A stretch of 54,035 nt of DNA from Nemertoderma westbladi (taxonomy: Eukaryota; Animalia; Xenacoelomorpha). Shown here piece after piece: positions 25,811 to 53,077 of the stretch. The notes beneath the pieces were generated by a model, which searched no databases, was not told the DNA's origin, and was given only the letters and a program-made list of their open reading frames with translations. The position numbers and the translations under genes were made by a program. The stretch spans positions 1 to 54,035 of the forward strand of contig JAUCBJ010007791.1 in assembly GCA_032718475.1 (NCBI GenBank), written 5' to 3'. Position 1 is the first letter of the stretch. Every line of letters starts with the position of its first letter.

Positions 25811-27432
25811 ATGGAGAAGGGGATACAAGGAGAGCCGAGATGGGGATATGATATCCAAGAGGAAGCAGCAGCGCCATTCGAAAGATTCGGTGCAAAGGAT
25901 TTAGTATATTTCGAGACGTGTATCTTCGCTGTGCGGGATCTCTTATCGAAAGACCATCTATGTTTACATTGTTACCCTATGAAGGAGAACGTATCGTGGA
26001 GATTACGGATGAATCACGGCAGACGCGCGCGCCTATCGGTCACCTTGGTGATGATTTCGAAGTAACTACTACGATCACTGACGATCCTTTAGAGGAACTT
26101 CTTGAGATAGAAAGGAACCTCCCGAAGAAATCTCAGACAGAGATTCGACAACTTGAAGCAACAGATGCTATAGTTTGTATACAACCTTCAGAAACCTACC
26201 AACCCATAGACCCAGATGATTACGATTATAGTATGGGAGGAAGCGCTCGACCGATTGGAGATCTTATATACGAACGAGTGTGGTACCCTGCCAATACGAT
26301 GTGTAGTAAATGTGGCGTCGCTGGACATCATATGGCAAAGTGCAGTGGAAAGCACATTACTACGACTCAGCTAATCTGTGGATGGTGTGGGGATCAAGGG
26401 TCTCATACCTTTTATACTTGCTGGAGATTTATGGCTCAATGTACTTATTGCAATATAAAAGGACATCGAGCATCTGAATGCCAACTAAGAGACATACCTT
26501 ATGAACACGAATCTGTAAAACTCGTGAGGAAGTTATTTGATGAGTGGGAAGATTTGGCCGACGAACATGTATCGGCACAAAGAAGACGGTTTCCGATGAG
26601 AGCGCATCTCGGATTTTGGGCGGTAAATCCTCAAACGATGATGTCGGAAGGATATATCTCCGCTATGCCCCAATATGACGAACTTATCGAGGTTGTCGAT
26701 ATTTTGCCCCACGACAGCGGATTCCGAGTGGTGCGCGAGTATCTACTACAGATTCACCCGGATGACAAAAACACGTGGAATTTTCAGAAAGTCGTTAATC
26801 GCATTACGTATGGTGAATTCGATCGTTTCCGAACTGAAAAGCGGAATAAAGGAGCTTGGTTAACCGTCGCATGGGCGTACCGAGCCGCGTTTTACCATAA
26901 ACGTATACGAGCGAGCGTATTCGAGGAAGAGGAGGTCCTAGAGGCGACAAATATACCAGCCACTCCGGTTGCGCCGTCTGCACGTCACCCTCGGGAGGAC
27001 GGACAGGGTAGGATCATACGGGTCCAGAAAGTGGGCCAACAATTAAAGAAAATTATTAATATAGAAGAACGCGAGGGAGCTGAGCCGACCATTCGAGTTA
27101 CTCGGGATACGGTATCGCTTCCTAGAGAACCAACAGGAGGATCGGGACACACACCAGCTGATCAGAAAGGGGCACAAGCTGCTCTTGGGTCTGCGTCGTC
27201 CGCTTCTCGCGCGTTCCCAGACGTTCTACCAACTGTAGTGACGACTGATCGGTCACGAGGAATCGGTCGAGGTTTTGGGATGCCAAATAGACGAATTTGC
27301 GAGGAAATAGTCGCACCGTCTCTCAACGTCCAAACGAAACCAGTGACTCGCCCCACGAGTCCCATATCGCGAGCAAAGTCACCTGTGCGCAGTTTTCGAG
27401 GACGCGGCAGGGCTCGATCAACTAAGCGATAA
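25811..27432 (+). CDS. ORF3 of element A: triple CCHC zinc-knuckle accessory protein with an Arg/Gly-rich basic tail (probable frameshift ~25900-25960)
   Basis: CSKCGVAGHHMAKC, CGWCGDQGSHTFYTC, CTYCNIKGHRASEC. The following domain aligns with the B and C proteins. ATG 25811 (MEK) resembles C's start (MEN) but is in a different frame from 25918-27432. Confidence 0.8.
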
Positions 27433-28199
27433 AAGGGAGGGCAAGGGTGGACGGAGGACTCGTGAGCCTTTCTTGTGAATTTGTGATTTATTTGAATTAT
27501 ATATTTTATATTTAATTAGTAAGTCTTGTATTCTGGAAAAACTCATATTTAGTAAGATTTATATTTTGTAAGAATTTATATTTTATATTTGTGATTATTC
27601 CGAACTTATGCAATTTATATTGTTCCGAATACTATGCAATTTATATCTTGTAAGCAGTATTTGTATTTACAGTGAAACAGAAAGTAAGAGTAGATGGAAG
27701 ACTCGTGGGCCTTTCTTATAGTTTTATTTGTAAAGTGTTATATTTTGTATTTAGAAAGTTTTATAGTCAGAAAGTTTTGTGCTCAGAAAGACTCATATTT
27801 GTAATTATTCCAAACTTATGCAATCTACATTTAGGTACGAAAGTATTTGTAATTATTTGAATTTATGCAATATTTGAGATGCAATAGTAGATGGAAGACT
27901 CGCGAGCCTTTCTTATTGTTTTCATTTATTTGTATTTGTAATTGTTTGAATTTATGCAATATTGAAATGCAATAGATTTATATTGGTGAATTTAATTTAG
28001 ATTTATATTGTACTTACTTAGTAAAGCCTTAAATACGTAAAGTTTGAATTTGTAATTAATTTTGTATCGAATCATTACGTAGAAAGGAAGTATTGTTTGA
28101 AACTTAATTGTAAATATGTAAGTACGCCCTAAGTATTTTATAGTTTGATTGATTATTGGTGAAAACCGTATATTTTATGCACGATAATATCCTGTTTTC

Positions 28200-28208
28200 A
28201 TGGAGCGG
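28200..28208 (+). other. Polypurine tract of element A (3' LTR inferred to start at 28209, reading TATAG rather than TG)
   Basis: TTTTCATGGAGCGG parallels the PPT of B and C (TTTTCTGGGAGCGG|TGT). Confidence 0.65.
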
Positions 28209-28235
28209 TATAGAATTATATTCCCTAAATGCCGT

Positions 28236-29419
28236 TGTTCGCGCTTTTGAAGACCTTTAGCAGTTTAACCTGCCAAAATTTATATGTCTTTTAGTTAATT
28301 AACACACCTTTAGCATACGACAATATTTTATGCTAATAAACAAAACATTAGCCGAAGCCAGCCCATGCGCGATCATTCACCCGATGGATCTACACCCGGG
28401 AGGCTGAATTCGGATGCTTAGATTTTATTATTGCAGTGTAAGGTTGCAGTGTAAGCCTACTGTATTATTCGATTGATTGCTAATATGTAATTTCTGACAG
28501 ATATTATTAACTTTCGGGAAATATTAACAGTTCCTTTAGGACGTGGCGCTCTATCTATTTAATCAGAGCTAGGACTTATACTAAACGCAACGATAAGGCT
28601 TATGATTAAAGTATAAGTCGCATTCTTTAGGAAATGCTTTGTTACCAGTCACATCACACTCACAATCATGCACACTATTCTGCCGACCGTCAGTATATTT
28701 GATCACACATAAAGAGAACAGCAATTGACTCAGGTAGTGTCTACTAAATAACATTAGATTCAATACACACCACATTGATATAAATCGCAATTGTTATATA
28801 TAGCCTGTCTCTCTAACCTGTAGTGTATCAAGAAATTGGGAAATTTGGGTGATTTATCAATATTCTCCAAATGACAATATTTCATCAACAAATCGATACA
28901 ATTAATAACTGACGGTAAATAGCAGTACAAACAATATGATTAGTGCAGTTAAATTAAGTGAGGTAACACCGCCGGTAACAGTTATACTTTCTATAATCTA
29001 AGCAGTTTTTGCTAGAGTTGTTCCAAAAGCCGGTGTTATGGCGAAAAATGGGAACACAACAACAGAAACATGTGACTACTACTACTATACGAGTATACCA
29101 AAAACTCTTATTCCACGAAGCCCCGTTCAACACAGAGGATGAGCATAGAGATAGGAAATTCAGTTCAGTAGCGCTGGGATAGGTCGAAATCAACGCCCAC
29201 GCAAATTCTATTGGCCGACAAGGGCAGCAAGGCTAAGGCAACCTCTCTAAGCTAGTTGGCCGATTAAACTGAGCCCAGATATCTCCGTATAGCACATCAG
29301 CCAATAAGCTGGTAGCTTGCACTATTTTAGTTATAAATCCCTTTGAGAGTATTCTAGCGACTGGGGGGGAACTGGCCAGCAAAGGCAAACGTATCAGTTA
29401 TCCCACAAAAGCTTTTACA
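28236..29419 (-). repeat. 3' LTR of element B
   Basis: Minus strand TGTAAAAG...GCGCGAACA. I spotted one mismatch (~29221) versus 38598-39781. AATAAA on the minus strand near 28425. Confidence 0.97.
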
Positions 29420-29428
29420 CCGCTCCCA
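29420..29428 (-). other. PPT of element B
   Basis: Minus strand TGGGAGCGG immediately before the LTR TGT. Confidence 0.8.
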
Positions 29429-29497
29429 GAAAATGGGATTTAAGTCTATAAAATATACAAAATCACAGTTTCTAAAATATAAAAATACTCTAAACAG

Positions 29498-30582
29498 TTA
29501 GTCTTTCTTGCGCGGACGGCGTTTACGCAGTTTTTTAAAGCTAGCAAGAGTCCTTTTCTCTTTGGGGCGAGCCGCTTTACGAGGAGGGCTATAACTCCTG
29601 GGTGAAGGGTGCAATATGATTGCATCAGAAGGTATGGGATTGCGATCGGTATATCCGCCGGTCGAAGTACCGGGTTGATTGACATCAACGTCCGGGGCGA
29701 GGGGTCTAACGGCTTTGAGAGCTCGTTTCAAGACAGCCGCTCTTACGGGTCCTTTACGAGTGGTCTGAACGAGGGCCGTGGGTGGACCATAGGCAGTTAG
29801 AAACTTCCTTGGTTTAATGGTTCTTTCCAACTCGCGTTCGCGGGCTCCGTACTCGTAAGGCCGTCGATATACTTCTTGTAACTCGGGGTGTGAGTTGACA
29901 AATAAGTCTCCATAGGCCGGATCTTGACGGATAAAGTTTATTAAGTTGTACGAATTGATGTCACTCGGATTAATGCTCCTGAGAAATTTGCGTACATATT
30001 TGGTTGAAATACATTCTCCAACGCGCTTCAATAGTTCATAACTTGATAGGCGCGATTTCTGCTCGACGGAGGCAAACAAATAAGGATGGAATGCATAAAC
30101 TCCTTCGTAAGCGCGTCCAGGATTATAGCGATGGCGCGAATCACAATGTAAATCAGTGTTCGCTTCCCAAGCTCTGATGTAACGTAGTGTGATCATTTCA
30201 TCTACGCTTTCCAAATCGTGATTAAAAGGACAATCGAAACTGGCATGTCCCTTTAGTTGACAATGGTGACATTGAGTCGTAAATTGGGGGCAGACAGCAA
30301 AAATGTGCAAATTATTAAGCCGACAATATGCACAATAGATTTCCATCGACGGTTGCTCGTGGAAATAGGAACAGAGATCGTTGGTGTCCATAGACGTAAT
30401 ATGGTCTCACGATGCGCACAACCGACAACGTTGCCGAGAAACATAGTTGACATGGCGATAATCGTACGCAGTGAGACACTGTGGACCTTGATACCATTCT
30501 AGGATGTAATCGTTGTCGCTGTTCCGAGCGCGATAGGCTGAATCTCCTCAGATTCTAGACATATTGGTTCGTCTTCCCAGTC
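29498..30582 (-). pseudogene. Zinc-knuckle accessory gene of B: N-terminus deleted, 1-bp deletion (~30530) and CGA>TGA (30407-30409); a 297-aa ORF from 30391 remains open
   Basis: Collinear with 51302-52385. CAYCRLNNLHIFAVC, CHHCQLKGHASFDC, KKLRKRRPRKKD tail. Confidence 0.8.
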
Positions 30583-30946
30583 TGTTACGAATATAATTTT
30601 CGTGATCTATTCTCGGTTTATCGTTACGACTCCGCTGGGTATGATATTTAAATAGAACCATTTCCCTTTCGGTGTATACATCGTCCGTATCATGTAAATC
30701 GATAGGATGGCCGGTAGTTAAAAAGTCCATATACGTACCATTACGATTCGTATAGCGAGCGGTGAATTTTCTATAGTCCAATTCACGCGTAAGTTGTTCC
30801 TGGGACATCGGCGGTTCGATATAACGACCATCGTCCTCCGTAATAGTCGGATCGGCTTCACCGCGTATCAAGCTATCCACAAACGCTTGTAAAGGTAGAG
30901 TATATCGCTCTCTAATACCAAGGTCATCTTCTATCAATTCCGTCAT
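30548..30946 (-). CDS. Small accessory ORF-X of B (132 aa, unknown function)
   Basis: The homologous frame is conserved in C (TDDVDTEREMVLFKYHAQRSRND, 54033-53926). Acceptor-like CAG just before the ATG. Confidence 0.55.
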   Translation of the reverse strand: MTELIEDDLGIRERYTLPLQAFVDSLIRGEADPTITEDDGRYIEPPMSQEQLTRELDYRKFTARYTNRNGTYMDFLTTGHPIDLHDTDDVYTEREMVLFKYHTQRSRNDKPRIDHENYIRNRLGRRTNMSRI

Positions 30947-32567
30947 ATCTGCTATCTGAGTTTATTAATATCAATATAAGTTAATATTTTAGGCAAGCGG
31001 GCGTCGCTGCCTACTAGGCTTTTGCCCCCGGACAGTGGGTTTCTCAGCGCCGATGTACCGCTGTCGCAGTGTTTACGCCAACATGTAGCAACAGCACGAC
31101 AACGATAACCGGCACAAGTCCCACCACTGTCCGTCCCAAAGGCTTGAATCCACTTGAGGTTATCTCGGTAGAGTTAGGGCTATTTTACAATTGCGATTAA
31201 CTACTGTAAACACACTTTAGTAGTAACATTCACCTATAAACGCACAAATTCCATACAATCATTGCTTACTGCACACATGCATGCCATTTGTCCGTTAGTC
31301 AGTGTCTTCCAGAATGTCACGTTATTACTATGTATCCTGGGATACTAATAGCGCGCTATGTATACTCTTATGCTACGCAATGGGGCAAGCTTTTTATTGT
31401 TCTTTTAACTTGCTTCTAATTCTAGCGTGGGTGTTGCCATGGTGACATTATGGAAAACTAGCGGTAGAATTAGGGTAATTCTCATGCATACAGATCTGGG
31501 ATGTTATTTAATAGTAATTCTTTAGTTGTCAATATCCTCTTTATGCATGATTTTATAAATTTTATCGGCTATTGACTATATGTTGGAGATTCTCGCGCTC
31601 TAATACACTCAATATGAATCTCCGCTCCCATGATCTATTAATTACTGGAATTTTGGGAATGTTATAAATTGCACAAAATGACAATTTATGAAATTCATTT
31701 GAATATGAATTTAAATTTGTTCCCGTGAATTTTATTATTTGATGTTAAAATGACACAAATTTTATTCCAGAGCATATCTGGGGACTTAGGATCCTTAATT
31801 CTATAAAATAGTCCTTCTAAGAATATCGTTAAATACTGCGATATCTTAATTGACTAGAAATTTTAAAGGATCGGGATTTTACAGATTTTAATAAATATTA
31901 ATTAATATTTAGGAGGGGCACCGATTTATTCCAGAACTTGTCTGGGGACGTTAACCACTGATTCTAGAATTTGTCTTTCAAGTATATCGGTGGGTGCCAC
32001 GATATCTTAATCGACTAGAATTACAGATGGTCAAAAGTTTAACAGATTTATTTGCGATTTACGCTACTGTTAGAGGGACATCACGCTACTATATGTATTA
32101 TTTGTTATAAGGTAGAAGAGCAATATCGCACGAAGCAATGTCAGTGTGAAGAGGCAAGTCGTTTCCAAGGTCTACCCAGAGCTTGGTTTAGCCGAGACTC
32201 GAGGATCTGAACTTTGCATTCCTAATACTCTGCCTACCAATAATACTTAAATATAGTAGTGGCTTTATTGTACTTTAATAAGTACTGACATGTCATCTTA
32301 CTATAGTCTCGCATTTATAATATAATACGGACAGTAAGGAAAGAGAAAAATAATTATTTCTTGCCGTCGCACTAAATATATTATAAGTAATTAAGTACGT
32401 AATAAACACTAATATATTGCACTAATTTACTAAATATTCTAAAATAACATTCTACTAAATAAAATTAAAGAAAACGATTATAATAAAATTACATAATAAT
32501 ACATACATAAATATAAAATAAAAAACAAATATAAAATGATATAGTCACACACCCACTCCATATGTTA

Positions 32568-35500
32568 TTATGTTATGGAGTCCCTAGATATTTGTCGGAT
32601 TAGGGAAGTGGTCGTAGGAAGAGTATCTTGCCTTCCATAGTTTCCGGACAGTTTTTGGTCTCTTTCCAGTAAACATAAACGACCAGCTGGGTGATTGGGT
32701 ACTCGTGTTACTTTCTCCGCTCCCTTGGCCTGTCTAATCTCAGCCGGGTTAAGGTGGGGAGGCCATTCATCTTCTTCTTTACTTAGGGAGTCGGGTCCAC
32801 CTAACCAGCCGGGAGTATCGATCCGTTCTTGAGGAGTCGCTCCTCTGGAAGCGATGTCGGCTAGATTAATCATCTCGGGGCGATGTCTCCATTGATCTTC
32901 ATTGGAGTTAATATCGTCATTATCTGAGGAGTATGGTGTTCCCTCAGTTAGTTCGTCCACTTCACTGCTCTCCACTTCCCAACCATTTATCTGGCATATT
33001 CTTTCTGGTGGTAGTCTCTCTTCGAGAGTTCTGCGGGAAGGGCCAGTAAAGTACCAACCTACTCTAGTTCTTACCGCATAGGTTTGTAGTGGCTGCGGTT
33101 GAGCAGGTCGTTTTTCCAATGTCTCGAGCGCCTCGTGCGCGTTTTGGCCGATAAGTATTTGCACTCCAGGATAATCCGTCTGGAATCGAGGTATTTTAAG
33201 TTGTTGGATGCTCTTGTCCTCGTTCCAGTTATAAGGCTCTACTTGGGTATTAGCGAAGTTCTTTATAGCTACCATTTTTACTGACCTTATACTTTGTTCT
33301 CCTAATTTATCCTGTGGGGTGGACAACGCACCTACATAGTAATCTGCCGTTATGGTAGATTTCCAAACCTGTATAACTCCTGACATATTTAACTTAGTTC
33401 GGAATTTGGGTTGTCCAGCAAAGATGTCTTCGGCTAGTTCTTGATCGATGAATGTTCCTGTACTGCCGGAGTCAAGGAGGGCATTCACTATGTAACTTTT
33501 GTTAGGACCCTGAACTCTTACCTGCACTACAGGAAATTCTCTGATTCCTACGTTGGAAGTTGAAGGTTTCCAGGATGGTTGTCTGTCAAAGTTAGTTGGG
33601 GAGAACTCATTGTCGGTGTCCTTTTCGTAAGTAAGTGCTCGATACACTGCGGTATTTATTAGGTAACAGGATTCGTTGGCGTCGGAGAATTCGTCCGTAT
33701 AGAATCCTTCCCACTCAGAACTTTGGTCAGTGTCGTTCATATCACTGAATTGGACATGTGATTTGGGCTCACTTACCTGACTCGGGCTGTTTCGTTCGAA
33801 TTCACTTTGTAACAAGATGTGATGTTTCGCACCGCACTTTGCACACTTTATGTCGGAGTAACAGGTTCGCCGCTGGTGTCCGCGTCTGAGGCAATTATAG
33901 CATAACCGCTTGTCCCACACAACTGTACGTCTGTCTACAAGGGATTTCTTTAGGAATTCCGCACACGCACTCAAACGGTGGGGCCCGTCGCACAGCGCAC
34001 AGTTGGGTTTAATGTTACTCACCTTATTTTGGGTGACGTTATGCACTCTAGTTCTTTCTTCGGGCTTTCTTCCGTGTACTCTGTTAGGAAACTGAAGAGG
34101 AGTCTTAGCAACCTGTTCTCTCCTGTCATGGGTTCGAGCTTTAGATTTACTTACGTCCTTTGAGGTCTTGTTAACATAGTAAAATTTCTCGGTGTCTTTC
34201 CCGCTGTCTTCTTCTTGAGAAGCTTGGCTTTCGCCGTCATCAGTATAACACACCGGTGTTACTCTTCTCCTAGAAACGGGTTTCTCACTTACCTTATTTT
34301 CCGGTGTTTTCTCTCTGGATTGCTTTAGGAGTTGTAATTTCACCTCGCCATCCAAGAATGACACGAGATCAGCCATGGTAGGGTCTCGTTGTTGTTGTTC
34401 CATCGTATATAACACCTTCTTGTCCCAGCGTGTACCTACTCCACCCTTGGGCAAAGTAGATGCTAAGGCTCCTACAACCATAGAATTCTGGTATTCATGA
34501 GACTTACCTAACCAATCTAGTTGTCTACAGATCTCCTGAATCTCATCGGAAAACTCTATAATCCCGCTGCTAAGAAACTTTCGGGGGGCCATTAATTTCG
34601 CATATAAATACCTAGCTATGTTATTCCTATTACCATACCTGATGTTTAGTGTATCCCAAACTTGTCTTAATCCATCTGGATGTCCAATAAATTTTAACGC
34701 CATTGACTTGGGAGGTCCTTCCAAGCACTCGATGAGGAATCTAAGTTTCTCTCCGTTGGATAACACAGAGTTCTGTATGTTATCTTTATAATATTCATTA
34801 AAAGGTAACCATTTCATCTCATCTCCATTGAACTTGACTATCTCTCCAACCTTTACCGCTTGACGGGCTTCGGTTCTAGCCATTTGATGCGTAAAACTTT
34901 CTTGGGCCATCGTGTTATTGAATATCGAGTTATCGGTATATAAATTTCTCGGATTATTATCAGGTCTATTGGGAATGTCATTAACAACAGGCGTATAATC
35001 ACCCTTAATAGGGTTTGCTATAGGAGTTTCTACTTCACTAGTAGTATAGATGCGTGTAGGCTCCACACCTTGCGCATGTAATACTTCAGACCTAACAGGC
35101 TGACACACTGTTACAGGGGTTATTGGTATTCCCTTTTGTAGGTTGACTAATTTGTCGCATTCTAGTGCGATACTTTGCTGCACTTTTTGCAACTCTAACC
35201 TACTTTCCCTTACTGTTCCCTTGAGCTGCTGAACAGTCTCTTCCATTTCCCGGACTTGCTGAGAGGAGCACAAACAGTGTTCCCTCAGCTGCTCGAGCAG
35301 GAGACCCATCTCCCGTCGTCCCTCAGCTACCCACTCAACCGCCGAAGCGGGAGTCGCCAACGTAGTAGCGGGCGAGCGAGAGACGACGGGCGATAAATTC
35401 TTGATCTCTCGCTCGGCGTCCAGGACGGGTTCGGACTCGGGAACAGTCCTACTGGGTACAGGTAGTTTAGTACTGTACAAAGGGAATTTATAGGCAGTTT

Positions 35501-36434
35501 CTGGGAGCACAGGTGTCTCTATCACCGAAGGGGTGATTTCAAGAACAGGCCTAATTATTTCAGGCTCATCTACTACAGTAGGGAGTCTTTCTACTGTAAT
35601 AATTTGGTCTGTGGGTTCTGTACTACCTAAGTCTGTGCTAGCTAGTTGCCTTCTCCCAGCTGGGGGCAGATTAGGCAATTTCTGACGGTGAGGCATTCTT
35701 CTACGTCTGTTGGAACGAGATCTATTTCCTCCGCCTTCAGGATCAGTGGTATCGCCTTCATCAGGTGACGTAACGCTTGCGTCCTTCTTCTGAGGTTTCT
35801 CTGCCGTCGCTTCGCCTTCCACTTGAGAAAAGACGGCGTCTGTTGATTCTCCTTGGGTCATGTGCTCGGTTAGCAGAGCTTTCCATTGAGTCGTTGCTTG
35901 GACTTTAAGACTCACACGCCAGAACAAAGTCTTTACGGCGACCCGCAACGACGTATCTTGGCTTATCCTTGAGACTTTCTCATAGGCTGAAAGAATTAGT
36001 CTGATCCACAGAACTCGTTCGCGAACTTGATAAAGCAGCTCTTCCTGCTCCCGAGGTCCGTAAGGCCGCTGAAACAGCTGCTCCTCCAATCGCCGCAGAG
36101 AGCTGAAGAATCTCTGTGCATATTCTGCTACCGACCCCTTCCACATAGCCGAATCCCTAGTGTTCCATACCACTCCCATCCTGTATAAGTCCTCCCAGCC
36201 AGCTTTCGATAAGTTAAACGGGAGTCCGGGTCCGGGGAAATTCCATTGCGTCTCGACAATAGACTTCAGTTCCTCCTTCGTGTATCCCGCATAACTATCC
36301 TTGGTCGATCGCTCACTTTTCGCCCAATCCATCTGGTGCTCCTCCACCGCAATCAATACCCTTTTGAGTACGGCTACAGGAAGGATGAGAAGGGGATCCG
36401 AACTATCTGACAGTGCCCGTTTTGTGTCAGACAT
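32568..36434 (-). CDS. gag: Gag-protease of B fused in frame to an RNase H C-terminal remnant (1288 aa)
   Basis: VKFNGDEMKW capsid-like region; CALCDGPHRLSAC, CYNCLRRGHQRRTC, CAKCGAKHHILL; LLDSGS protease; then directly WRH...NLADIASRG...WLGGP..EWP. No YVDD or DDE. Confidence 0.92.
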   Translation of the reverse strand: MSDTKRALSDSSDPLLILPVAVLKRVLIAVEEHQMDWAKSERSTKDSYAGYTKEELKSIVETQWNFPGPGLPFNLSKAGWEDLYRMGVVWNTRDSAMWKGSVAEYAQRFFSSLRRLEEQLFQRPYGPREQEELLYQVRERVLWIRLILSAYEKVSRISQDTSLRVAVKTLFWRVSLKVQATTQWKALLTEHMTQGESTDAVFSQVEGEATAEKPQKKDASVTSPDEGDTTDPEGGGNRSRSNRRRRMPHRQKLPNLPPAGRRQLASTDLGSTEPTDQIITVERLPTVVDEPEIIRPVLEITPSVIETPVLPETAYKFPLYSTKLPVPSRTVPESEPVLDAEREIKNLSPVVSRSPATTLATPASAVEWVAEGRREMGLLLEQLREHCLCSSQQVREMEETVQQLKGTVRESRLELQKVQQSIALECDKLVNLQKGIPITPVTVCQPVRSEVLHAQGVEPTRIYTTSEVETPIANPIKGDYTPVVNDIPNRPDNNPRNLYTDNSIFNNTMAQESFTHQMARTEARQAVKVGEIVKFNGDEMKWLPFNEYYKDNIQNSVLSNGEKLRFLIECLEGPPKSMALKFIGHPDGLRQVWDTLNIRYGNRNNIARYLYAKLMAPRKFLSSGIIEFSDEIQEICRQLDWLGKSHEYQNSMVVGALASTLPKGGVGTRWDKKVLYTMEQQQRDPTMADLVSFLDGEVKLQLLKQSREKTPENKVSEKPVSRRRVTPVCYTDDGESQASQEEDSGKDTEKFYYVNKTSKDVSKSKARTHDRREQVAKTPLQFPNRVHGRKPEERTRVHNVTQNKVSNIKPNCALCDGPHRLSACAEFLKKSLVDRRTVVWDKRLCYNCLRRGHQRRTCYSDIKCAKCGAKHHILLQSEFERNSPSQVSEPKSHVQFSDMNDTDQSSEWEGFYTDEFSDANESCYLINTAVYRALTYEKDTDNEFSPTNFDRQPSWKPSTSNVGIREFPVVQVRVQGPNKSYIVNALLDSGSTGTFIDQELAEDIFAGQPKFRTKLNMSGVIQVWKSTITADYYVGALSTPQDKLGEQSIRSVKMVAIKNFANTQVEPYNWNEDKSIQQLKIPRFQTDYPGVQILIGQNAHEALETLEKRPAQPQPLQTYAVRTRVGWYFTGPSRRTLEERLPPERICQINGWEVESSEVDELTEGTPYSSDNDDINSNEDQWRHRPEMINLADIASRGATPQERIDTPGWLGGPDSLSKEEDEWPPHLNPAEIRQAKGAEKVTRVPNHPAGRLCLLERDQKLSGNYGRQDTLPTTTSLIRQISRDSIT

Positions 36435-37759
36435 GTTTGATTGTACAGTTGAATGCCTACTGCTATATTACAGTCAAAGCAAGTCTAGTAATTCAGTATC
36501 ACTGTTAGCCTAGTACCGGTAATTAATTACAATATATTAGAATACCGGTATACACTTATAGTATATATAAGTATTGTAAACTAGGTTTGTCACAGAGTAC
36601 CGGTATATAATTTTAGCACAAATATATATAAATATATAATAGGCCTATCGTGAATACCGGTATACAGCTTACACTGATAGTATATATAAGTATAATTATG
36701 GACTAGAATTAATTACAGAGTACCGGTATGATTTCAGCTCAAATTTATAGAAATAAATATAATAAGCCTATGGTAAATACTGGTATGTCAATTATTTTAG
36801 AATAATTGAATTTCTGAATATTTTAGGGTTACTTGGTTACTTTAACTTACTTTATTACCGTTATTTAAGCAGTAGTCCAACTGATATTGAGACCTAGTTG
36901 TTGTATGGCAGGCCTACTATTTATAAATCGTTTGAGTTGATTTATAATATTTATATACCCGTTTAAAATGGGTTTTTGTCAATATTTGAAATAAATGTTA
37001 TTATTTCTGGGGGAGTCACTACACAGAAGCTGTGCGCTCTCAGTGAAGTGTTACTTATTGAGACACTAAAACAGATAATTCTACTGGCCTAAGTTACTTA
37101 TCTACAAATTACTTACGATACGAGTGAGATTAAATCTCTAATTAAACACAACAACAAAATATTACGTACGAATTTTTAGGGTAATTTTACAGGAAGTCTA
37201 CAAACCAGCCTAACAAAGGGTTAGAATTCTGGTTATTACAATGGACAGGGTACTACGGTATTTGAAAATAATAAGTAGTAGTAAATACACTGCGTTGTCC
37301 AGATAGGAAAATACCACCGCCTGACGACCTATAACCGTATCGCTATAGGTACTACGTTATGTATCACGGATTGTTCCTACCTAGAAGTTAATTACCGCGG
37401 ACTACCAGATCCAGCGTGCCTATTAACCACTTTACAACACAAATATACTGCCTACACACTAATTACTTCGGAAAGCACTGTACACTAAACCCTAAATTAG
37501 GTACAAGTACTGGTATAACAAATAATCAGCAGTTAAATATACTTGAACAGTTAAAAGAACCACGGCATCTGCTGGAGTGACCGAAGCACAAAGTCACCAG
37601 TCTTTACCTACGCCGAGCAGCCCTGATGTAGTACCGGGGTTAGTTTAACTATAACGGTATGTATAACAAGCACAATTACTGTAGGAATAAACTTGGGGAC
37701 ATGAATGTTGCGAATAATCGCATAAACTCTGAATAATAAATATTACGCTACCCGTACAG

Positions 37760-38310
37760 AATACTCAAACAAATACAAACCAAAACGCTGGCAGACTACC
37801 ACCAAGCCTAAATAAACTACCGTACGTGTAGATTCTGAAATAGTTAGTTAGCATGCGTTCTAACACGGTAGTACGACTTATTCTTCAAGAGGGGATTGAC
37901 CTTACCGCTATGGCTGCCCCAACTTACTAACGGAGCTTTATCAGACAAACTCTACACACGCAGCAATCTCTTCAGACCTAATAATAGCTAGACAACAATC
38001 CAGCCTACAAAATATCTGAGTAATAACTATTACGGTACCTGAACAGACCACACAAACAAACACAGGCCAAAACGCTGGCAGACTACGATCAAGCCTAAAT
38101 AAACTACAGTATATGCAGATTCTGAAATAGTTAGTTAGTATGCATTCTAACACGGTAGTACGACTTATTCTTTAAGAGGGGATAGACCTTGCAGCATATG
38201 GCTGCCCCAACTTACTAACAGCACTTTATCAGACAAACTCTACACACGCCGTAATCTCTCCAAACCCAACAACAGTCAGACAGCAGCTCAGCCTACAATT
38301 ATCTGAACAA
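37760..38310. repeat. ~287-bp imperfect tandem duplication in the leader of B
   Basis: CCAAAACGCTGGCAGACTAC at 37780 and 38067. Each unit has a minus-strand CTAACTATTTCAG acceptor-like motif. Confidence 0.85.
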
Positions 38311-38597
38311 TCTGAGCAGGGTCACACGCCTTCTGCTCAATATTAGCCTACTAGTAAATAAAACCGACAGAAATAAGTAGAATCTCAAATAAAAATCAGG
38401 GCGGCCGTTCCCTGATTAAATACTAAGACCTACCGGTATACTATAATCAAAATCGAATAATACTAATGTACTTATACTGGAAGTACCGGTTAGGGCAGTT
38501 GGGCCTACGGACCTACAGAAGTGCCGGTTCAGTTTTACCGGTCACTACGGTATTTTGCAACCTTATTGCTTACTGCAATAAGATCGTTAACTGTTAC

Positions 38598-39781
38598 TGT
38601 TCGCGCTTTTGAAGACCTTTAGCAGTTTAACCTGCCAAAATTTATATGTCTTTTAGTTAATTAACACACCTTTAGCATACGACAATATTTTATGCTAATA
38701 AACAAAACATTAGCCGAAGCCAGCCCATGCGCGATCATTCACCCGATGGATCTACACCCGGGAGGCTGAATTCGGATGCTTAGATTTTATTATTGCAGTG
38801 TAAGGTTGCAGTGTAAGCCTACTGTATTATTCGATTGATTGCTAATATGTAATTTCTGACAGATATTATTAACTTTCGGGAAATATTAACAGTTCCTTTA
38901 GGACGTGGCGCTCTATCTATTTAATCAGAGCTAGGACTTATACTAAACGCAACGATAAGGCTTATGATTAAAGTATAAGTCGCATTCTTTAGGAAATGCT
39001 TTGTTACCAGTCACATCACACTCACAATCATGCACACTATTCTGCCGACCGTCAGTATATTTGATCACACATAAAGAGAACAGCAATTGACTCAGGTAGT
39101 GTCTACTAAATAACATTAGATTCAATACACACCACATTGATATAAATCGCAATTGTTATATATAGCCTGTCTCTCTAACCTGTAGTGTATCAAGAAATTG
39201 GGAAATTTGGGTGATTTATCAATATTCTCCAAATGACAATATTTCATCAACAAATCGATACAATTAATAACTGACGGTAAATAGCAGTACAAACAATATG
39301 ATTAGTGCAGTTAAATTAAGTGAGGTAACACCGCCGGTAACAGTTATACTTTCTATAATCTAAGCAGTTTTTGCTAGAGTTGTTCCAAAAGCCGGTGTTA
39401 TGGCGAAAAATGGGAACACAACAACAGAAACATGTGACTACTACTACTATACGAGTATACCAAAAACTCTTATTCCACGAAGCCCCGTTCAACACAGAGG
39501 ATGAGCATAGAGATAGGAAATTCAGTTCAGTAGCGCTGGGATAGGTCGAAATCAACGCCCACGCAAATTCTATTGGCCGACACGGGCAGCAAGGCTAAGG
39601 CAACCTCTCTAAGCTAGTTGGCCGATTAAACTGAGCCCAGATATCTCCGTATAGCACATCAGCCAATAAGCTGGTAGCTTGCACTATTTTAGTTATAAAT
39701 CCCTTTGAGAGTATTCTAGCGACTGGGGGGGAACTGGCCAGCAAAGGCAAACGTATCAGTTATCCCACAAAAGCTTTTACA
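38598..39781 (-). repeat. 5' LTR of element B
   Basis: Copy of 28236-29419. Confidence 0.97.
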
Positions 39782-39786
39782 GCCGT

Positions 39787-41675
39787 GGATTTTCAAAATT
39801 TTATTTTATTCGGATTAACTTTGTAAAAGATTGCTTTGAATCCTCATTTGTATTTGTAATATCTATTGTACATCTATTGGTCAAGTGGTTCAGTAGCTCA
39901 GTCGGTAGAGCGTTGGAAATTATATGTGTAGTAGGTATTGAGTTCGAATCCTAGTAAGTGCGAATTATTTTTTGTGCAGAATTTCAACTCATTTAAATTA
40001 ACCGCTACAAATTAATTGCATTTATCTGTACCAATGAGACTGTAGTTATTTGATTGTAACCAATGTCGTGCAAGTTATATATTAGCTGGACCAATAGCTA
40101 TCTTTAAAACCTTGTTAGAACCCATAGAACAATCGAGAATTTTCTCGATTGATTGCGGCACAAATTTGCTATAAAAAGGTGCGATTTGTTCATTAGTTAT
40201 ACTTCTCAGATTATCTTATCTTATCAATATTCTGTCGTGCTTAGTTTATTTCAGATTACATTGTATTATAATTATATCTTCTGTAATAAAGTCAGAATTA
40301 TCGCTAATCTGCTTTTCCTATCTGTTTTACTATGATTCACCACGGTGAACCCAACTAAGGGACAGGATGGCAGGCTAGAGATCGGGCCGCAGCAATGAAC
40401 GGGAACATCACGGGAATGTAGACGAGAGACAACCCGCAATACCATCTAGAGTTATTCGCCCATCGCCTGAAAGGTTAGACAGCGTTCGATCCTTGCTACC
40501 TAAGTGTAAGACCAAAAGATCAAAAGGTAGACGTAGTGACACGCTGTAAGCCTAAAATTACATCTTAGGGACTGTACCGTTTTTAATTCAGAAAAAACCG
40601 CAGTGGACCTTCATATTCCTACGGGGGGGAGAGCGCAGGCAGATACTAGTACGCAGATAGGACGTAGGCACACCGGTACAAGGCATACAAATGGTTAGGG
40701 TGCAGCAAACTGTACGCTTAACTCTTGCTAAGTGCAGGTGCGTGTGCGACTATTTGCAGTACGACAGTGTCCATTGCATTAGAACTTGTAGGCTAGGGGG
40801 GTTGCTGTGTTTTCACCTGAATTAGGATTGTACCGTTCAGGCGGTAGGGCAGTTTACGTACTAGGCGCAAATAAATTGAGGCTATTAGGGATACTAACAT
40901 CTACCGTGTCCCCGCCAACGCCCTGATAGGAAGTTACCTGGACTACCTGGGTGACTAAAATTCTAGATAGGACGCCAGGATAGCTATTAGTAACTGTACG
41001 CCTACAGTAGTAAACTAACACATCTCTTCTTAGTATCAGGGACCTGGTACCTAAAATTGCCGAATTCTGGGCGTAGTATTAACCTTATGCCTGAATTTGA
41101 GTCCTGGAAATACGCAAGAGGGGAAGGAACCTTATCATTCGTGAGTATTGGACCTACAAGTTATAAAATTAGAATATTCGTAAAATGCACACCGTACCCA
41201 GTAATTATATATGTGAAGGAGCAAAACTGCTTTTGACCGTTCAGAATTAACACACGCGCGTTAGAAATTATTTACACCTCAAAATATATAAAATTAACTT
41301 TCGTCCTTACTGCACTTTGCTCGCTAGTTAGACATCTCCAAATATCTGCCTCTGTACCTAGCTAGCGTCTCTTTGCCCAGCCATATAAATCACACCGCGG
41401 CAAAGTATACGAGCCCTTTAGTCCGTCAGTGAGTCAGCCTGATTTTAGGATTCGCTGCGCGGGATTTTGTTTTATCGAAGTTTGTCTGCTCGTAGACTGT
41501 TTTCTGCCTCACCGGTTATAAGAGATCGATACTGCAATATATTCGCTTACTTAGAGTTTACTGTTTTGGTGAGAAGGTCGGATTTATGATTTGATTTACA
41601 AACTTTACAGTAAGATATTGCAGGTATTGTTACCGTCTCTTCCAATAGTAGGAATAGGCGTATCTCTTCAATTAG
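39787..41675 (+). repeat. Remainder of the 3' LTR of element A (first 27 bp at 28209-28235), cut at 41675 by a LINE
   Basis: 39894-41675 matches 13936-15720. Full tRNA-like cassette at 39887-39973. Confidence 0.85.
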
Positions 41676-46233: not shown

Positions 46234-47017
46234 ACTGGAACTAGTGGAGCGGGGGGGGGGGGGGGGCGGCGGTGTGGGGGATGAAGTTTATACTAGATTC
46301 GGAATTTTGCTAATTTATAACTTCGATGACACTTTCTTTTTTTATTATTATGAGGCAGATTCTCATCACACAAGCAACCAACTACACACGGGTCAGGTTC
46401 AGGCACCCCAGCAGACAAACTATCACATACTGCATGTGTATCACAATATTGAGAAATTTTCAGGATTACAATTTAGTTACAAAAAAAGCAAAAAGAAATA
46501 CAGTTAATCGGATAAAGGCTAATAGTATAATTAAATTAATAATATTATTATTACTGTATAGGCCCTAATGTTTAATTTTATTTTTATGATTGCCTTGCTA
46601 CTCCTCTTCAAATTGCGGTTCACTGAATTCTGGCGCGCACTTTATTGGCTAAACTCTTAGGACCTCCTTGTCTCTCTCTATATACAGTATAATTGTTTTT
46701 TGACCGGCTGTTTTCTTTAGGTTGTAACGCAACCGTAAATTCAAGGCCAGTATCACTTAAAAGGGTCTCAAGAAAGTGGACCTCTTGATGTAATATTGAA
46801 TGTATAATTCGCCTCGCTCGTGAAAATTCGAACTCAGCAAATTTTACATCACAGAGGCATAGTGTGTGGTGAGAAATAAAGTGATATATATTTTCTATTC
46901 TTATACTGTACTTCTTGTGAAGCTACTTATAATTTATGTACTTGGGAATACCAATACTTCTTTGATCTTTATAGTTTTCTAACTTTATTACTATCAGCCG
47001 TCTGTGATTTCATCAAA

Positions 47018-47956
47018 ATGGATAAATTCATAATGTTATTTTTCCTGGATCTTATTTTCATATTGTTTATAATGGTTCCCTTAATGTGTTTGCAGTTTTA
47101 CGGTGAACCGCAAGACCGCGGTTTCTACTGCAACGATGACTCAATTCGATATCCAATGAAGAAAGAGACAATAAAAGAATCTGTGAATGTTATATGTGGA
47201 ATTGTATTAGTTGTACTCACTGTCTTTGTGTGCGAATGCGTTAACGCTTATACCAAGTACGGGAGGTACTTTATTCACGGTGCACCTTTACCAACGTTTC
47301 TGCGGGGGTCTACTTCCAGGGTCATCAACGCATGCGCGCGATCTCCCATCTACATCTGCTACGTATCGTTGGGGATCGCATTATTCGGTGGTTGCGCCTC
47401 CAATGTCATAACGAACATTGGTAAATTCGCGATTGGCCGACAGAGGCCTCACTTTATTGCGGCTTGTAAACCTGATCCGTTGAAGTTTATATGCCAGCCC
47501 GACACCCATACTATGTACACGACTGCGGTCTGCGAAGCTCCTGCCATTGAATTCCGCGAAGCCCGAATTTCCTTCCCTTCGGGACACAGTTCTTTTTCAT
47601 TGTACATCGCCGTCTACCTTATCATATACCTCCAGTACCGTTTCCCAGGGACACGACCACCCACATTCAAACACATGATACAGTTTTTGATCTTCTGTTT
47701 GGCTTTGTGGGTGGCTTTTACGCGTATTGCGGACTATTACCATCACTGGAGCGATGTGCTGGCCGGAGGGCTGTTAGGCACGGTGGTGGCCTGTCTGTGC
47801 GGAAGGTGGCTGCGGCTGTGGGTGGAACCCTTACACGTGCGACACAGTGAGAGTGCTGTACTACTGGATTCCGTTAGGAGATACACAAAGGATGACAACG
47901 CGCAACCTCCCGGCGAACAAACAGAGACTTCCTCACCACCATCCAATATTATCTAA
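47018..47956 (+). CDS. PLPP: Phospholipid (lipid phosphate) phosphatase, PAP2 family (PLPP/wunen-like), single-exon CDS
   Basis: RGFYCNDDSIRYP; catalytic motifs C1 KFAIGRQRP, C2 SFPSGH, C3 TRIADYYHHWSD; about six hydrophobic segments. Confidence 0.95.
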   Translation: MDKFIMLFFLDLIFILFIMVPLMCLQFYGEPQDRGFYCNDDSIRYPMKKETIKESVNVICGIVLVVLTVFVCECVNAYTKYGRYFIHGAPLPTFLRGSTSRVINACARSPIYICYVSLGIALFGGCASNVITNIGKFAIGRQRPHFIAACKPDPLKFICQPDTHTMYTTAVCEAPAIEFREARISFPSGHSSFSLYIAVYLIIYLQYRFPGTRPPTFKHMIQFLIFCLALWVAFTRIADYYHHWSDVLAGGLLGTVVACLCGRWLRLWVEPLHVRHSESAVLLDSVRRYTKDDNAQPPGEQTETSSPPSNII

Positions 47957-49925: not shown

Positions 49926-50020
49926 CTACTACTACTACAAGGTTGAGCGAGCTCGGACATTACAACCTTGCAAAAAGTATAAATAATATAGAATTATGTC
50001 GATTTTTTTGTTCTAGACGA

Positions 50021-51223
50021 TGTTCGCGCTTTCAGACCTTTGGCAGTTTAATCCGCCAAATTAAGATGTCTTCTAGATATTAAATCGCTTTTTAGCCTAT
50101 GACAAGTATTTGATTCACTACACTAGTCGAAACCAATCTGTGCGCGATCATTCACCCGCTGGATATTCCCGGGAGATTGGGTTCGACGGTTTAATTTTAT
50201 TGCTATGTAAGCCTAATGTATTATTCGACTGACAGTATTATATAATCTCTGACAATATTATTCACCTTAGGGAATATTAACAGTTCCTTTAGGACGTGGC
50301 GCTTTATTTATATAAACAGAGTTATGACTTAAACTACTCACAACGATATGGCTTAATTATAATTCACATATATGGCGCATTCTTTAGGAATTGCTTCTTT
50401 AACAGACTCACTCATACACAATGCTGCACAATACTGCACACTAATCTGCCAATCTTCACTGATTTTAGTCACATATAAAAGGAACACAGACTGACTCATG
50501 TAGGGTCTATCAAATAACATTAGATTCACTTCAAACCACTTTAACATAAGTCACAATCGTTATTGGTAACCTTTCTCTCTTACCTTCGGTATATCAAGAA
50601 TATTGGGTTTTCGGGGTTATTTCTCGTTATTCCAATATAATAATTCATCAACAAATATAATGAATAACCGACAACAAATAGCAGTATACAGTATCGATTG
50701 AGCAGGTAATTTTAGCAGTTTCAGCAGTTATACGTCAGTTATTAAAAGCCGTGTGTGCCGTGTGTCAGCAGTTAAAGGATATATGTCCTTATAATTAAAC
50801 CTACTAGTGTTAAGCTAAAAAGCAGAAAGCACAAAACACTACAAAGCCGTTCTTTCGTGGCTTTGAAAAACTCGTGACTACTACTCTATACGAGGATACC
50901 AACTACCCTTATTCCACGAAGCTCCCGTTCAACACAGAGAAAGAGCAGTGAGATAGGAAAATTTCAGTTCAGTAGCTCTGTGATAGGTCAAAATCAAGGC
51001 TAACTCAAATTCTATTGGGAGATACAAAAACAAGGCTATGACGCAACCTTCCTAGGCTGGTTGGCCGATTAAACAGAGCCCAGATACCTGCGTACAGCAA
51101 ATCAGCCAATAAGCTGGTAGCTTGCACTATTTTAGCTATAGATCCCCTTTAGAGTATTCTAGCGACCGGGGGGGAACTGGCCAACAAGGCAAACGAATCA
51201 GTTATCCCACAAAAGCTTTTACA
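50021..51223 (-). repeat. 3' LTR of element C (1203 bp)
   Basis: TGTTCGCGC...AAAAGCTTTTACA on +. Collinear with B's LTR but diverged. Confidence 0.93.
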
Positions 51224-51301
51224 CCGCTCCCAGAAAATGGGATTTAAGTCTATAAAATATACAAAATCACAGTTTCTAAAATATAAAAATACTCTAAACA
51301 G

Positions 51302-53077
51302 TTAGTCTTTCTTGCGCGGACGGCGTTTACGCAGTTTTTTAAAGCTAGCAAGAGTCATTTTCTCTTTGGGGCGAGCCACTTTACGAGGAGGGCTGTAGCT
51401 CCTAGGCGAAGGGTGCAATATAATTGCATCAGAAGGTGCAGGGTTACGATCGGTATACCCGCCGGTCGAAGTACCTGGTTGATTAATATCAACCTCAGTG
51501 GAGTGAGGTCTAACGGCCTTTAGAGCGCGTCTCAGGACAGCAGCTCCTACGGGTCCTTGACGGGTCGTCTGGACACTAGCGGTGGGTGGACCGTGAGTAG
51601 TGAGGAACTTTCTCGGTTTAATGGTTCTCTCCAGCTCGCGTTCTCGGGTTCGATATTCATATGGTCGCCGAGATATTTCCTGTAGTTCAGGATGCGAGTT
51701 CACAAAGATGTCGCCATACTCCGGGTCCTGACGGATAAAATTGATCAGGTGATATGTGGTTATATCATTAGGGTTAACGTTTCTAAGGTATTTCCTGACA
51801 AACTTGGTGGAAATACACTCACCAACACGCTTCATTAACTCGTAACTTGGTACGCGTGTTTTCTGTTCAATCGACGCGAATAGATAAGGATGGAACGCGT
51901 AAACTCCCTCGTAAGCTCGTCCAGGGTAATAGCGATGTCGGGATTCGCAATGTAAATCGGCGTTCGCTTCCCAAGCTCGGATGTATCGCAGGGTGATCAT
52001 CTCGTCTACGCTCTCTAAATCGCGATTAAAGGGACAATTGTAACTTTCATGTCCTTTAAATTGACAGTAGTGACATTGAGTCATAAATTGTGGGCAGACG
52101 GCAAATATATGAGAGTTATTAAGCCGGCAATAAGCACAATATATTTCCATCATCGGTTGTTCGAGGAAATAGGAACAAGGTACGCTCGAGTCTAGAGGAG
52201 TGAAGTGGTCTCTCGATGCACATAATCGACAACGTTTTCGAGAAACGTAGTTGGCGTGTCGATAATCGTACGCTGTGAGACGCTGTGGACCTTGATACCA
52301 CTCTATGACATAATCATTGTCACTGCTCCGGGAAGCCGTAGGTTGAATCGCTTCTGATTCCAAGCATACTGGTTCATCCTCCAGCTGCATAGACGAAGTG
52401 GGTGCGTCGGTTTCCGTAAGTGGACCCACTGTCTGTATTTCCACGACAGAATAACCTGTAGATATTCGGGGTCTTTGTATAACGGATGAATGTAGGTTCT
52501 GTATACAAACGTCTTGAAAGACGGCAAATCCAGCGCTACTCAGTTTCTCCGCAGCTGAGTCTCTAAGACTGAGCTTGGTCAGCGCGCGGTCCTTGAACTG
52601 ACTATCGACGTTACGGAACGGAGTCAGAAAGCGCCGGAAACATTCGAAACGTATGAACTTATTGTGTTCGTCTAACTTGGCGAGTTTAGTTCCAAGTATT
52701 AAGGGATGAGCGCGTATGGTACGACTGCACACATCGGCTAGCCAACCGGCAAGTGCTGCGTTTTCAAAGATCGTGTATATAGCTAAGGAAGGGCGAAGGG
52801 GAACACTCATAAAGCTATATACGGCACCAGGCGCAGTTAATGGTCCATCAAAATATAAACGAGAGTAATGATCTCCATATACTTGCTGGTAATTTATAGG
52901 ATTTCCAACTTTGAAATTCCAACCATATTCTTGAAAGGCAAGATGTCCGATGGATGTCCGTTGTACTTTAGTAATGCCGCTGGGTGTATTGGCATACATA
53001 GTGCGAAAGAAACCTCGGCCTTCGGCCCAAGGAGCAATCAGCTGAGTATCAACGAAAGGGTATGGAATGTTCTCCAT
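51302..53077 (-). CDS. Intact zinc-knuckle accessory protein of C (591 aa)
   Basis: CRLCASRDH..C, CAYCRLNNSHIFAVC, CHYCQFKGHESYNC; shared domain; basic tail. Acceptor TATTTCAG at 53153-53146. Confidence 0.88.
   Translation of the reverse strand: MENIPYPFVDTQLIAPWAEGRGFFRTMYANTPSGITKVQRTSIGHLAFQEYGWNFKVGNPINYQQVYGDHYSRLYFDGPLTAPGAVYSFMSVPLRPSLAIYTIFENAALAGWLADVCSRTIRAHPLILGTKLAKLDEHNKFIRFECFRRFLTPFRNVDSQFKDRALTKLSLRDSAAEKLSSAGFAVFQDVCIQNLHSSVIQRPRISTGYSVVEIQTVGPLTETDAPTSSMQLEDEPVCLESEAIQPTASRSSDNDYVIEWYQGPQRLTAYDYRHANYVSRKRCRLCASRDHFTPLDSSVPCSYFLEQPMMEIYCAYCRLNNSHIFAVCPQFMTQCHYCQFKGHESYNCPFNRDLESVDEMITLRYIRAWEANADLHCESRHRYYPGRAYEGVYAFHPYLFASIEQKTRVPSYELMKRVGECISTKFVRKYLRNVNPNDITTYHLINFIRQDPEYGDIFVNSHPELQEISRRPYEYRTRERELERTIKPRKFLTTHGPPTASVQTTRQGPVGAAVLRRALKAVRPHSTEVDINQPGTSTGGYTDRNPAPSDAIILHPSPRSYSPPRKVARPKEKMTLASFKKLRKRRPRKKD

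Follow-up and report, generated by a model that had tools for sequence, protein, structure and literature searches.

A reading frame of its own (ORF3) lies 3′ of the integrase end, i.e., in the env position of BEL/Pao elements, at this locus, raising the question of what kind of protein it encodes and what that protein does for the element. Among LTR superfamilies, BEL/Pao has received little study. Replication of Belpaoviridae is poorly understood, and the third genes given for them are env-like only, with function unknown (ICTV profile). A soluble, selected third protein in two families with ~26% Gag-protease identity would offer a handle on how unspliced RNA escapes nuclear retention and silencing. 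The window, i.e., the whole 54,035-nt stretch that was analysed, holds all or part of three elements, here called A, B and C.

The elements and their classification

Element A belongs to BEL/Pao (Belpaoviridae), with a DUF1759 Gag followed by protease, reverse transcriptase (RT), RNase H and integrase in Gypsy order and with Pao-type Pfam domains. Element B is also a BEL/Pao element, having a DUF1759 Gag, a triple Cys-His box, a Pao-type protease, TG..CA LTRs and a target-site duplication. Element C is presumed to be a BEL element only from the likeness of its LTR and ORF to those of B, its pol lying outside the window.

13936..15720, + strand: 5′ long terminal repeat of A, ends not canonical TG..CA
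14517..15960, + strand: weak candidate GT..AG intron, from the A LTR to the gag leader
16513..23568, + strand: gag-pro-RT-RNase H of A (DUF1759, E=8e-11; Peptidase_A17 (Pao), E=1.5e-42)
23438..25135, + strand: integrase of A (Integrase_H2C2, E=1e-4; DUF5641, E=2e-21)
39894..41675, + strand: 3′ long terminal repeat of A, pairing with 13936..15720
28236..39781, - strand: element B, with TG..CA LTRs at 38598-39781 and 28236-29419 and a 5-bp target-site duplication
32568..36467, - strand: gag-protease of B, fused without a change of frame to the end of RNase H and to what is probably the C-terminal tip of integrase
30551..30961, - strand: small ORF of B, 137 codons stop to stop, between the pol end and ORF3
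50021..51223, - strand: 3′ LTR of C, 75-86% identical to the B LTR

The terminal repeats of A are 98.3% identical (1747/1777 aligned). Contigs from all four runs span all 30 bins from the LTR through pol to ORF3 of A, indicating that the gene is not confined to the present A copy. In this copy the gag-pol ORF is broken by a stop at 17254-17256, and the integrase frame differs from that of the upstream pol ORF. A target-site duplication was sought for A and none was found. Cer7 reportedly carries an additional ORF and a tRNA-like primer of its own. A tRNA-like head of the A LTR was considered and rejected, as it was called by neither ARAGORN nor Rfam and folded no better than shuffles (z=-1.1). 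Belpaoviridae have LTRs of 0.2-1.2 kb, a tRNA primer-binding site and a polypurine tract adjoining the 3′ LTR (ICTV profile); the repeats of A, as delimited here, measure 1.78 kb, and neither a TGG primer site nor an adjoining purine tract was seen. The candidate intron has a pyrimidine tract on the side of its acceptor at 15960 and is skipped (1444 nt) in one contig of run X4, a run of unrecorded RNA status, the shorter arm of the contig measuring 25 letters; none of the 12 joints listed leads into ORF3. The depth of run X4 contigs along A is higher over ORF3, a contig-derived value and not taken as a sign of expression.

Element B lies within the 3′ untranslated region of A, and its LTRs show 1 difference in 1184 positions. 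It is without RT and the integrase core, and its fused frame matched DUF1759 (E=2e-13), the RNase H end (E=5e-6) and, when 2 kb were searched, the integrase tip (E=0.005). A TGG primer-binding site was not seen directly after its 5′ LTR. Part of its small ORF, for which Pfam gave no match, also occurs in C at 53930-54035.

Anatomy, homology and relatives of the ORF3 protein

25811..26065, + strand: 84-codon ORF in a frame other than that of A ORF3, whose start it overlaps
25852..27432, + strand: A ORF3 (accessory protein), open from stop to stop, 526 aa, first ATG at 25960
26302..26481, + strand: three zinc knuckles of A ORF3 (aa 151-210)
26488..26841, + strand: post-knuckle domain of A ORF3 (W/F-E-x-x-A-D ... 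R ... G-aromatic ... Y)
29498..30577, - strand: ORF3 remnant of B, with a 5′ deletion, one frameshift and one stop inside knuckle 1
51302..53077, - strand: C ORF3, intact, 591 aa, ATG at 53077
52231-52034 and 52024-51683, - strand: knuckles and domain of C ORF3, preceded by a ~170-aa N-terminal region and followed by a basic tail

The first-pass annotation described ORF3 as a triple zinc knuckle, an unrecognised domain and an Arg/Lys tail in each element. The ORF that it reported in A is genuine, but its proposed start at 25918 is a GTG within a frame that is open from 25852 and has its first ATG at 25960. Its placement of the gene just before the polypurine tract and 3′ untranslated region suits B and C, where the stop lies 78 nt from the LTR in both, but not A, where 910 nt separate the stop from the terminal repeat after subtraction of element B. 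The remnant in B is ~1.55 kb shorter than the copy in C, with an open stretch at 30406-29498 that gives 297 aa when begun at its first Met, past the knuckle-1 stop. Retention of these 297 aa despite the loss of RT and integrase had been taken as a sign of function; because this copy is broken by a deletion, a frameshift and a stop, its retention says little about function. The recent insertion of B with a broken ORF3 indicates, moreover, that ORF3 is dispensable in cis.

The knuckles of A are CX2CX4HX4C, CX2CX5HX4C and CX2CX4HX4C, starting at aa 151, 176 and 197, and those of C are CX2CX4HX9C, CX2CX5HX4C and CX2CX4HX4C. The triple knuckle is therefore present in A and C but not in B, which keeps knuckles 2 and 3 and has a stop codon within knuckle 1. 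In the domain search the A knuckles gave weak zf-CCHC matches only (E=0.003). The triple Cys-His box of BEL Gag ends in CX2-4CX3HX4H (PMC554778), and both Gags of this window keep knuckles of their own, as had been proposed, with a spacing unlike that of ORF3. Duplication of the BEL Gag nucleocapsid was rejected as the origin of ORF3, since the third ORF3 knuckle is CX2CX4HX4C and tblastn gave no Gag match at E<1.

The ORF3 proteins of A and C align at 27% over 321 columns (E=6e-25). The reported alignment of the domain between the distant A and B/C proved correct: without the knuckles, the post-knuckle domain alone reaches a local score of 102, which 0/2000 shuffles attain (maximum 58). The homology also extends 5′ of the knuckles, past the first ATG of A (score 66; 0/2000 shuffles, maximum 63). 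Over six aligned sequences, 12 positions are invariant, with E94, D98, R106 and Y136 among those beyond the knuckles. Set against Gag-protease regions that are 26-27% identical between the two families, this homology implies either that both sides of a deep split have the gene or that it was exchanged between them. The proposed dN/dS check gave a dN of 0.089, a dS of 1.08 and a dN/dS of ~0.08 between B and C (342 codons), so ORF3 is under purifying selection between these copies. Among the variant sites listed for A ORF3, 3 of 4 fall on third codon positions. With high confidence, the two distant BEL/Pao families have in ORF3 an accessory gene that is under selection.

A basic C terminus was found in all three ORF3 proteins (9, 12 and 13 K+R in the last 25 aa), but the tails are not homologous: those of A and C do not align (1769/2000 shuffles score equally well), and the remote homologue P0008 is without one (3/25 K+R). 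The tail of B and C resembles an NLS (KKLRKRR). Counts of NES-like patterns (3 and 4) do not exceed those of shuffles (5.4 and 6.9, respectively). A hydropathy scan bears out the earlier view that signal peptide and transmembrane helix are lacking: the 19-residue maxima are 0.78, 1.19 and 0.83, compared to 2.84 for a membrane PAP2 protein of the same window. With no hydrophobic segment, the ORF3 protein is not an envelope.

No curated family in the libraries searched matched the post-knuckle domain, in agreement with its first description as unrecognised. When 1.84 billion proteins were searched by HMM, eight matched, three of them with both knuckles and domain; the other five (P0010, P0011, P0013, P0014 and P0015) were discarded because their likeness was of a generic knuckle or repeat kind. 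A word-seeded protein search with aa 140-330 of A gave 0 matches, and such searches with a 6-row profile recovered own members only (2/844 candidates and 1/2489). Locus scans of viral, metagenome and prokaryote-genome collections yielded nothing related to A, C or P0012 and, for P0008, its own contig only; 0/7 window proteins were present in an exact-match collection. The best PDB sequence matches of ORF3 were LIN28 (E=0.002), dArc1 and nucleocapsids (E 0.002-0.3). The two AlphaFold models, at mean pLDDT values of 41.7 and 32.7, were too poor to read a fold, and Foldseek on these low-pLDDT models returned nothing at E<=0.001, a result uninformative on fold. Judged from its sequence, ORF3 likely represents an undescribed accessory protein family within a kind of arrangement that is already known. 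Annotation pipelines would overlook such an unnamed zinc-knuckle-associated domain or label it env.

A putative role in RNA export and its alternatives

CCHC knuckles bind zinc and single-stranded RNA. By analogy, we tentatively propose that the ORF3 protein exports and protects the unspliced genomic RNA of the element, as a nuclear RNA-binding regulator like CERV for Cer1 and Rev for HIV. It would be translated from a subgenomic RNA; its knuckles would bind zinc and single-stranded RNA, its basic tail would supply nuclear import, and its small conserved domain may pack on the knuckles or recruit a host factor. The candidate leader intron would have to stay in the genomic RNA, and for this the element would require the ORF3 protein. 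Weighing against this proposal are the single contig behind the leader joint, NES-like counts no higher than those of shuffles, the lack of a basic tail in P0008, the differing architecture of CERV, structure models too poor to use and the recent insertion of B with a broken ORF3. The intact C copy can be expressed and assayed unmodified. A broader and more doubtful extension is that the knuckle and W/F-E-x-x-A-D module might be a previously undescribed but ancient family that regulates retroelement RNA in LTR elements across animals. In BEL/Pao it would serve as the Rev/CERV equivalent, so that these would count as 'complex' retroelements in which the export of unspliced RNA is regulated, and in some relatives the module would be joined in tandem with an exonuclease fold that is catalytically dead.

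The same anatomy would fit a protein that counters silencing or decay of RNA by the host (piRNA, siRNA or exosome) through binding to the element's RNA or to a host factor, with no role in driving export, a reading that we consider unlikely. Rotifer LTR elements with DEDDy exonuclease ORF3s (PMC5408684) favour it, as does the N-terminal part of P0008, which by eye resembles a catalytically dead DEDDy fold. However, this likeness is statistically unsupported (44/300 shuffles did as well against a 4-sequence profile), P0008 has no such match in Pfam, NCBIfam, PHROG or PDB, and a DEDDy domain was not found in A or C.

Retroviral nucleocapsid CCHC knuckles are nucleic-acid chaperones, and ORF3 could act as a second chaperone of this type in the particle, for primer annealing or strand transfer. 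The knuckles, the PDB matches given above and the absence in A and B of a TGG primer-binding site directly after the 5′ LTR are consistent with this; the knuckles retained by both Gags, the length of ORF3 (490-590 aa) with its separate conserved domain and the NLS-like tail of B/C make it improbable. We give still less weight to a DNA- or chromatin-binding factor, i.e., an LTR transactivator or integration tether, which would suit zinc-binding motifs with a basic, low-complexity tail and the co-occurrence of both families at one site, with B inside A. A single nested insertion is no proof of targeting, and single-stranded nucleic acid is the usual ligand of knuckles spaced in this way.

The three remote homologues, none of which is placed in a BEL element, could point to a captured host gene or a passenger without a role for the element. 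This is very improbable in view of the dN/dS of ~0.08 within an element family, the identical position in two distant families, the lack of introns in ORF3 and protein searches that gave no named or Pfam-annotated host homologue. Least credible is an Air1/Air2 (ZCCHC7) mimic, in line with the knuckle likeness noted at first, which would engage Trf4 or Mtr4 and block TRAMP: it shares tandem CCHC knuckles, but Air2 ranks last of 24 PDB matches (E=4.5), ORF3 has three knuckles (one X5-spaced) rather than five canonical CCHC, and the IWRxY motif, which contacts Trf4 (PMC3384339), has no counterpart in any of the 8 proteins scanned.

Comparison with known systems

Tandem CCHC knuckles also occur in Air1/Air2/ZCCHC7, LIN28 and nucleocapsid proteins; this likeness is generic, and the post-knuckle domain is unmatched in them. 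Within Belpaoviridae, Tas, Cer7, roo and mosquito BEL elements carry env-like third genes that agree with ORF3 in superfamily and genomic position, but these are described as envelope or fusion glycoproteins, whereas the ORF3 protein is without a hydrophobic segment (PMC8742986, PMC554778, PMC13524379). In bdelloid rotifer LTR elements (Juno, Vesta, TelKA and Mag clades), ORF3 encodes DEDDy exonucleases, GDSL esterases or TM/coiled-coil proteins, which, like the present ORF3, are non-envelope, common to distant retroelement lineages and proposed to have RNA-related auxiliary roles; knuckles are described there for gag and pol (PMC5408684). The closest functional model is CERV of Cer1 in C. elegans, an env-position, cysteine-rich, NLS-bearing protein that is needed for genomic RNA export (PMC10309623). 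Cer1 is a Ty3/Gypsy element, in contrast to BEL/Pao here, and CERV is described with H, M and G domains and a C4-type loop, which by description sets it apart from the three CCHC knuckles and domain of ORF3; the correspondence is thus one of analogy, not homology (PMC10309623).

Architecture of the three elements

The window holds three LTR retrotransposons (A, B and C), A belonging to one BEL/Pao family and B and probably C to another, very distant one. BEL/Pao elements have been recorded only in animals according to the available part of PMC554778, and the host is therefore probably an animal. Each element carries a third gene, ORF3, at the env position.

Features of the retrotransposons and neighbouring sequence (coordinates, strand where assigned, description)
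3345-7800: minisatellite array of 28-32-bp units
10174-12088: near-perfect 678-bp tandem repeat
13936-15720 and 39894-41675, +: terminal repeats of A, 1.78 kb each, identical at 1747 of 1777 aligned positions
~22760-23560: ~270-aa low-complexity, partly repeated insert with a Lys-rich start, between RNase H and integrase in A pol
25852-27432, +: ORF3 of A
28236-39781, -: element B, within the 3' untranslated region of A, with a 5-bp target-site duplication
29498-30577, -: ORF3 remnant of B
30551-30961, - and 53930-54035, -: further uncharacterised ORF separating the end of pol from ORF3 in B and C; their DNA is 90% identical over 106 nt, and 30551-30961 matched nothing in Pfam
32568-36467, -: ORF of B with two in-frame deletions (RT; integrase core), its 1299-codon frame still open
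41573-42529, +: probable remnant of a non-LTR element, an RT fragment with DUF6451 adjoining the 3' repeat of A
42268-46233: probable non-autonomous DNA transposon, its inverted termini of 304 bp flanking a 34/36-bp tandem array
46880-47956, +: ORF without introns for a PAP2 lipid phosphate phosphatase (E=1.7e-26), either a host gene or a retrocopy
51302-53077, -: ORF3 of C

The gag-pol domains of A are of BEL/Pao type (Pfam DUF1759; Peptidase_A17, E=1.5e-42; DUF5641, E=2e-21); gag is interrupted by a stop in this copy and the integrase lies in a separate frame. In the long ORF of B, gag-protease continues in frame into the RNase H end and what is probably the tip of integrase, RT and the integrase core being absent; the LTRs of B (TG..CA) mismatch at 1 of 1184 positions. 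The open frame and near-identical LTRs make B a likely non-autonomous derivative that still codes for Gag and was mobile recently. Element C is truncated at the window end, and we infer its BEL status from the LTR (75-86%) and internal sequence it has in common with B. No TGG tRNA primer-binding site directly follows the 5' LTR in A (15721-15760) or B (38550-38597), and no purine tract adjoins the 3' repeat of A; priming of A and B may be unusual. Each terminal repeat of A begins with a tRNA-like A box, B box and T run resembling a SINE head (13936-14015, 39894-39973), which neither ARAGORN nor Rfam called; another stretch with similar A and B boxes is found at 45003.

The ORF3 proteins and their homologues

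ORF3 is likely a genuine accessory gene family of BEL/Pao elements, under selection and containing a domain without a name, its BEL linkage coming from this genome. The ORFs, the spacings of the three zinc knuckles and the domain alignment described in the first-pass annotation are all present in the sequence. ORF3 of A and C share 27% identity over 321 columns (E=6e-25), and the post-knuckle domain aligns on its own (score 102; shuffle maximum 58, 0 of 2000 as high). The stretch upstream of the knuckles also aligns (score 66; shuffle maximum 63, 0 of 2000), extending beyond the first ATG of A, and the start of A ORF3 is therefore a candidate only. The tails are similarly basic, as had been noted, but cannot be aligned between A and C (1769 of 2000 shuffles equal or better). 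No ORF3 segment reaches membrane-helix hydrophobicity, in agreement with the earlier view that the protein is not an envelope. Its third knuckle is CCHC and differs from the third Cys-His box of BEL Gag, the comparison standard in the available part of PMC554778; tblastn of ORF3 against Gag of A and of B gave no match.

Searches of known families returned sub-threshold knuckle matches in Pfam, none in NCBIfam and one weak match in PHROGs (E=0.025), to a family without assigned function. Among PDB sequences, the ORF3 profile ranked LIN28 first (E=0.002), followed by dArc1 and nucleocapsids. Foldseek also gave no match, a result uninformative on fold since the predicted structures were of low confidence (pLDDT 41.7 and 32.7).

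An HMM built from A, B and C and run against 1.84 billion protein representatives gave eight matches at E<=0.001. Five were rejected as generic knuckle or repeat proteins, and three continue beyond the knuckles: P0008 (633 aa, two tandem units, E=2e-6), P0009 (148 aa) and P0012 (265 aa), none of which is named or reaches the Pfam cut-off for any family. The six-row alignment has 12 invariant columns, including E94, D98, R106 and Y136 beyond the knuckles. Domain-only tests (shuffles of 2000 reaching the score) gave 0 for A-P0012, 1 for C-P0008 and 2 for C-P0012, with weaker values for A-P0008 (26), C-P0009 (23) and A-P0009 (542); these are not independent, because the same profile picked the three proteins. 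Among the homologues themselves, P0008-P0009 gave 0 and P0008-P0012 gave 1. On its 3685-bp contig, L001, P0008 is an ORF without introns (124-2022), its two knuckle-plus-domain units lying behind an N-terminal region, followed by 1.4 kb of non-coding DNA (purine tracts, TATA-like box, AATAAA, TGG) and an acidic ORF running off the contig end. ORF3, LTR and gag would follow one another in this way if the element were tandem or circular; the contig carries no pol from which a superfamily could be read. A by-eye likeness of the P0008 N-terminus to a dead DEDDy exonuclease found no statistical support (small profile, equalled by 44 of 300 shuffles).

Selection and copy number

Between B and C, 342 aligned ORF3 codons gave dN 0.089 and dS 1.08, a ratio of 0.083 (pN 0.084, pS 0.57). 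The ratio was 0.11 in the knuckles; in the post-knuckle domain pN was 0.078, with synonymous sites saturated. Among the variant sites listed in A ORF3, three of four are third codon positions. The stretch from integrase to ORF3 of A was found in part in 5 of the 9 sequencing runs listed. Contigs of four runs covered every one of the 30 bins, in A as well as in B ORF3, with up to 28 at a single A ORF3 variant site and some ~77-82% alike across the knuckle region, which indicates multicopy families with diverged relatives; no one contig bridges pol and ORF3. The retention of ORF3 in B had been taken as a sign of function, for which it is weak evidence because the copy lacks ~1.55 kb present in C and has one frameshift and a stop within knuckle 1. 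The recently inserted B can evidently do without an intact ORF3 in cis.

Possible function and comparison with known systems

In one contig of sequencing run X4, recorded as DNA by guess, 1444 nt are skipped between a GT donor in the A LTR and an AG acceptor within the leader, with 25 letters on the shorter side. In one X4 contig, A>G accounts for 16 of the 17 changes listed, dense over the U5 region of A (14844-15549) and resembling ADAR hyper-editing. With one contig per signal, and alleles able to mimic editing, these features hint that X4 is RNA and that the A leader is spliced. If this intron is real, genomic RNA would have to exit the nucleus unspliced. In Cer1 this is achieved by CERV; CERV, a cysteine-rich protein likewise encoded at the env position, is required for export (PMC10309623, available part). 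Tentatively, ORF3 could work as CERV does, as an export factor for unspliced genomic RNA, although we infer every functional step by analogy. An anti-silencing factor is an unlikely alternative, and a chaperone within the particle a more doubtful one; a DNA or chromatin factor is improbable, and a mere passenger slightly more so. Least probable is mimicry of Air proteins, to whose knuckles the first-pass annotation had likened ORF3: Air2 ranks last of the 24 PDB sequence matches (E=4.5), and ORF3 has neither the five canonical knuckles nor the IWRxY motif folding on Trf4 described in the available part of PMC3384339.

The literature base comprised PMC8742986 and the available parts of PMC5408684, PMC3118150, PMC554778, PMC13524379, PMC3384339, PMC6338049, PMC6238403 and PMC8556966. 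Wherever the text available from it mentions BEL third genes, these are env-like (including PMC8742986, PMC554778 and PMC13524379). Full-text searches of openly accessible papers listed no zinc-knuckle third ORF in BEL/Pao, and Repbase or Dfam may already contain an annotation of it; the supplements of PMC3118150, as described in its available part, list BEL/Pao sequences that may include this one. The protein family appears not to have been known previously. Its arrangement is of a known kind, non-envelope ORF3s being described, in the parts available, for rotifer LTR elements (PMC5408684) and for Cer1 (PMC10309623).
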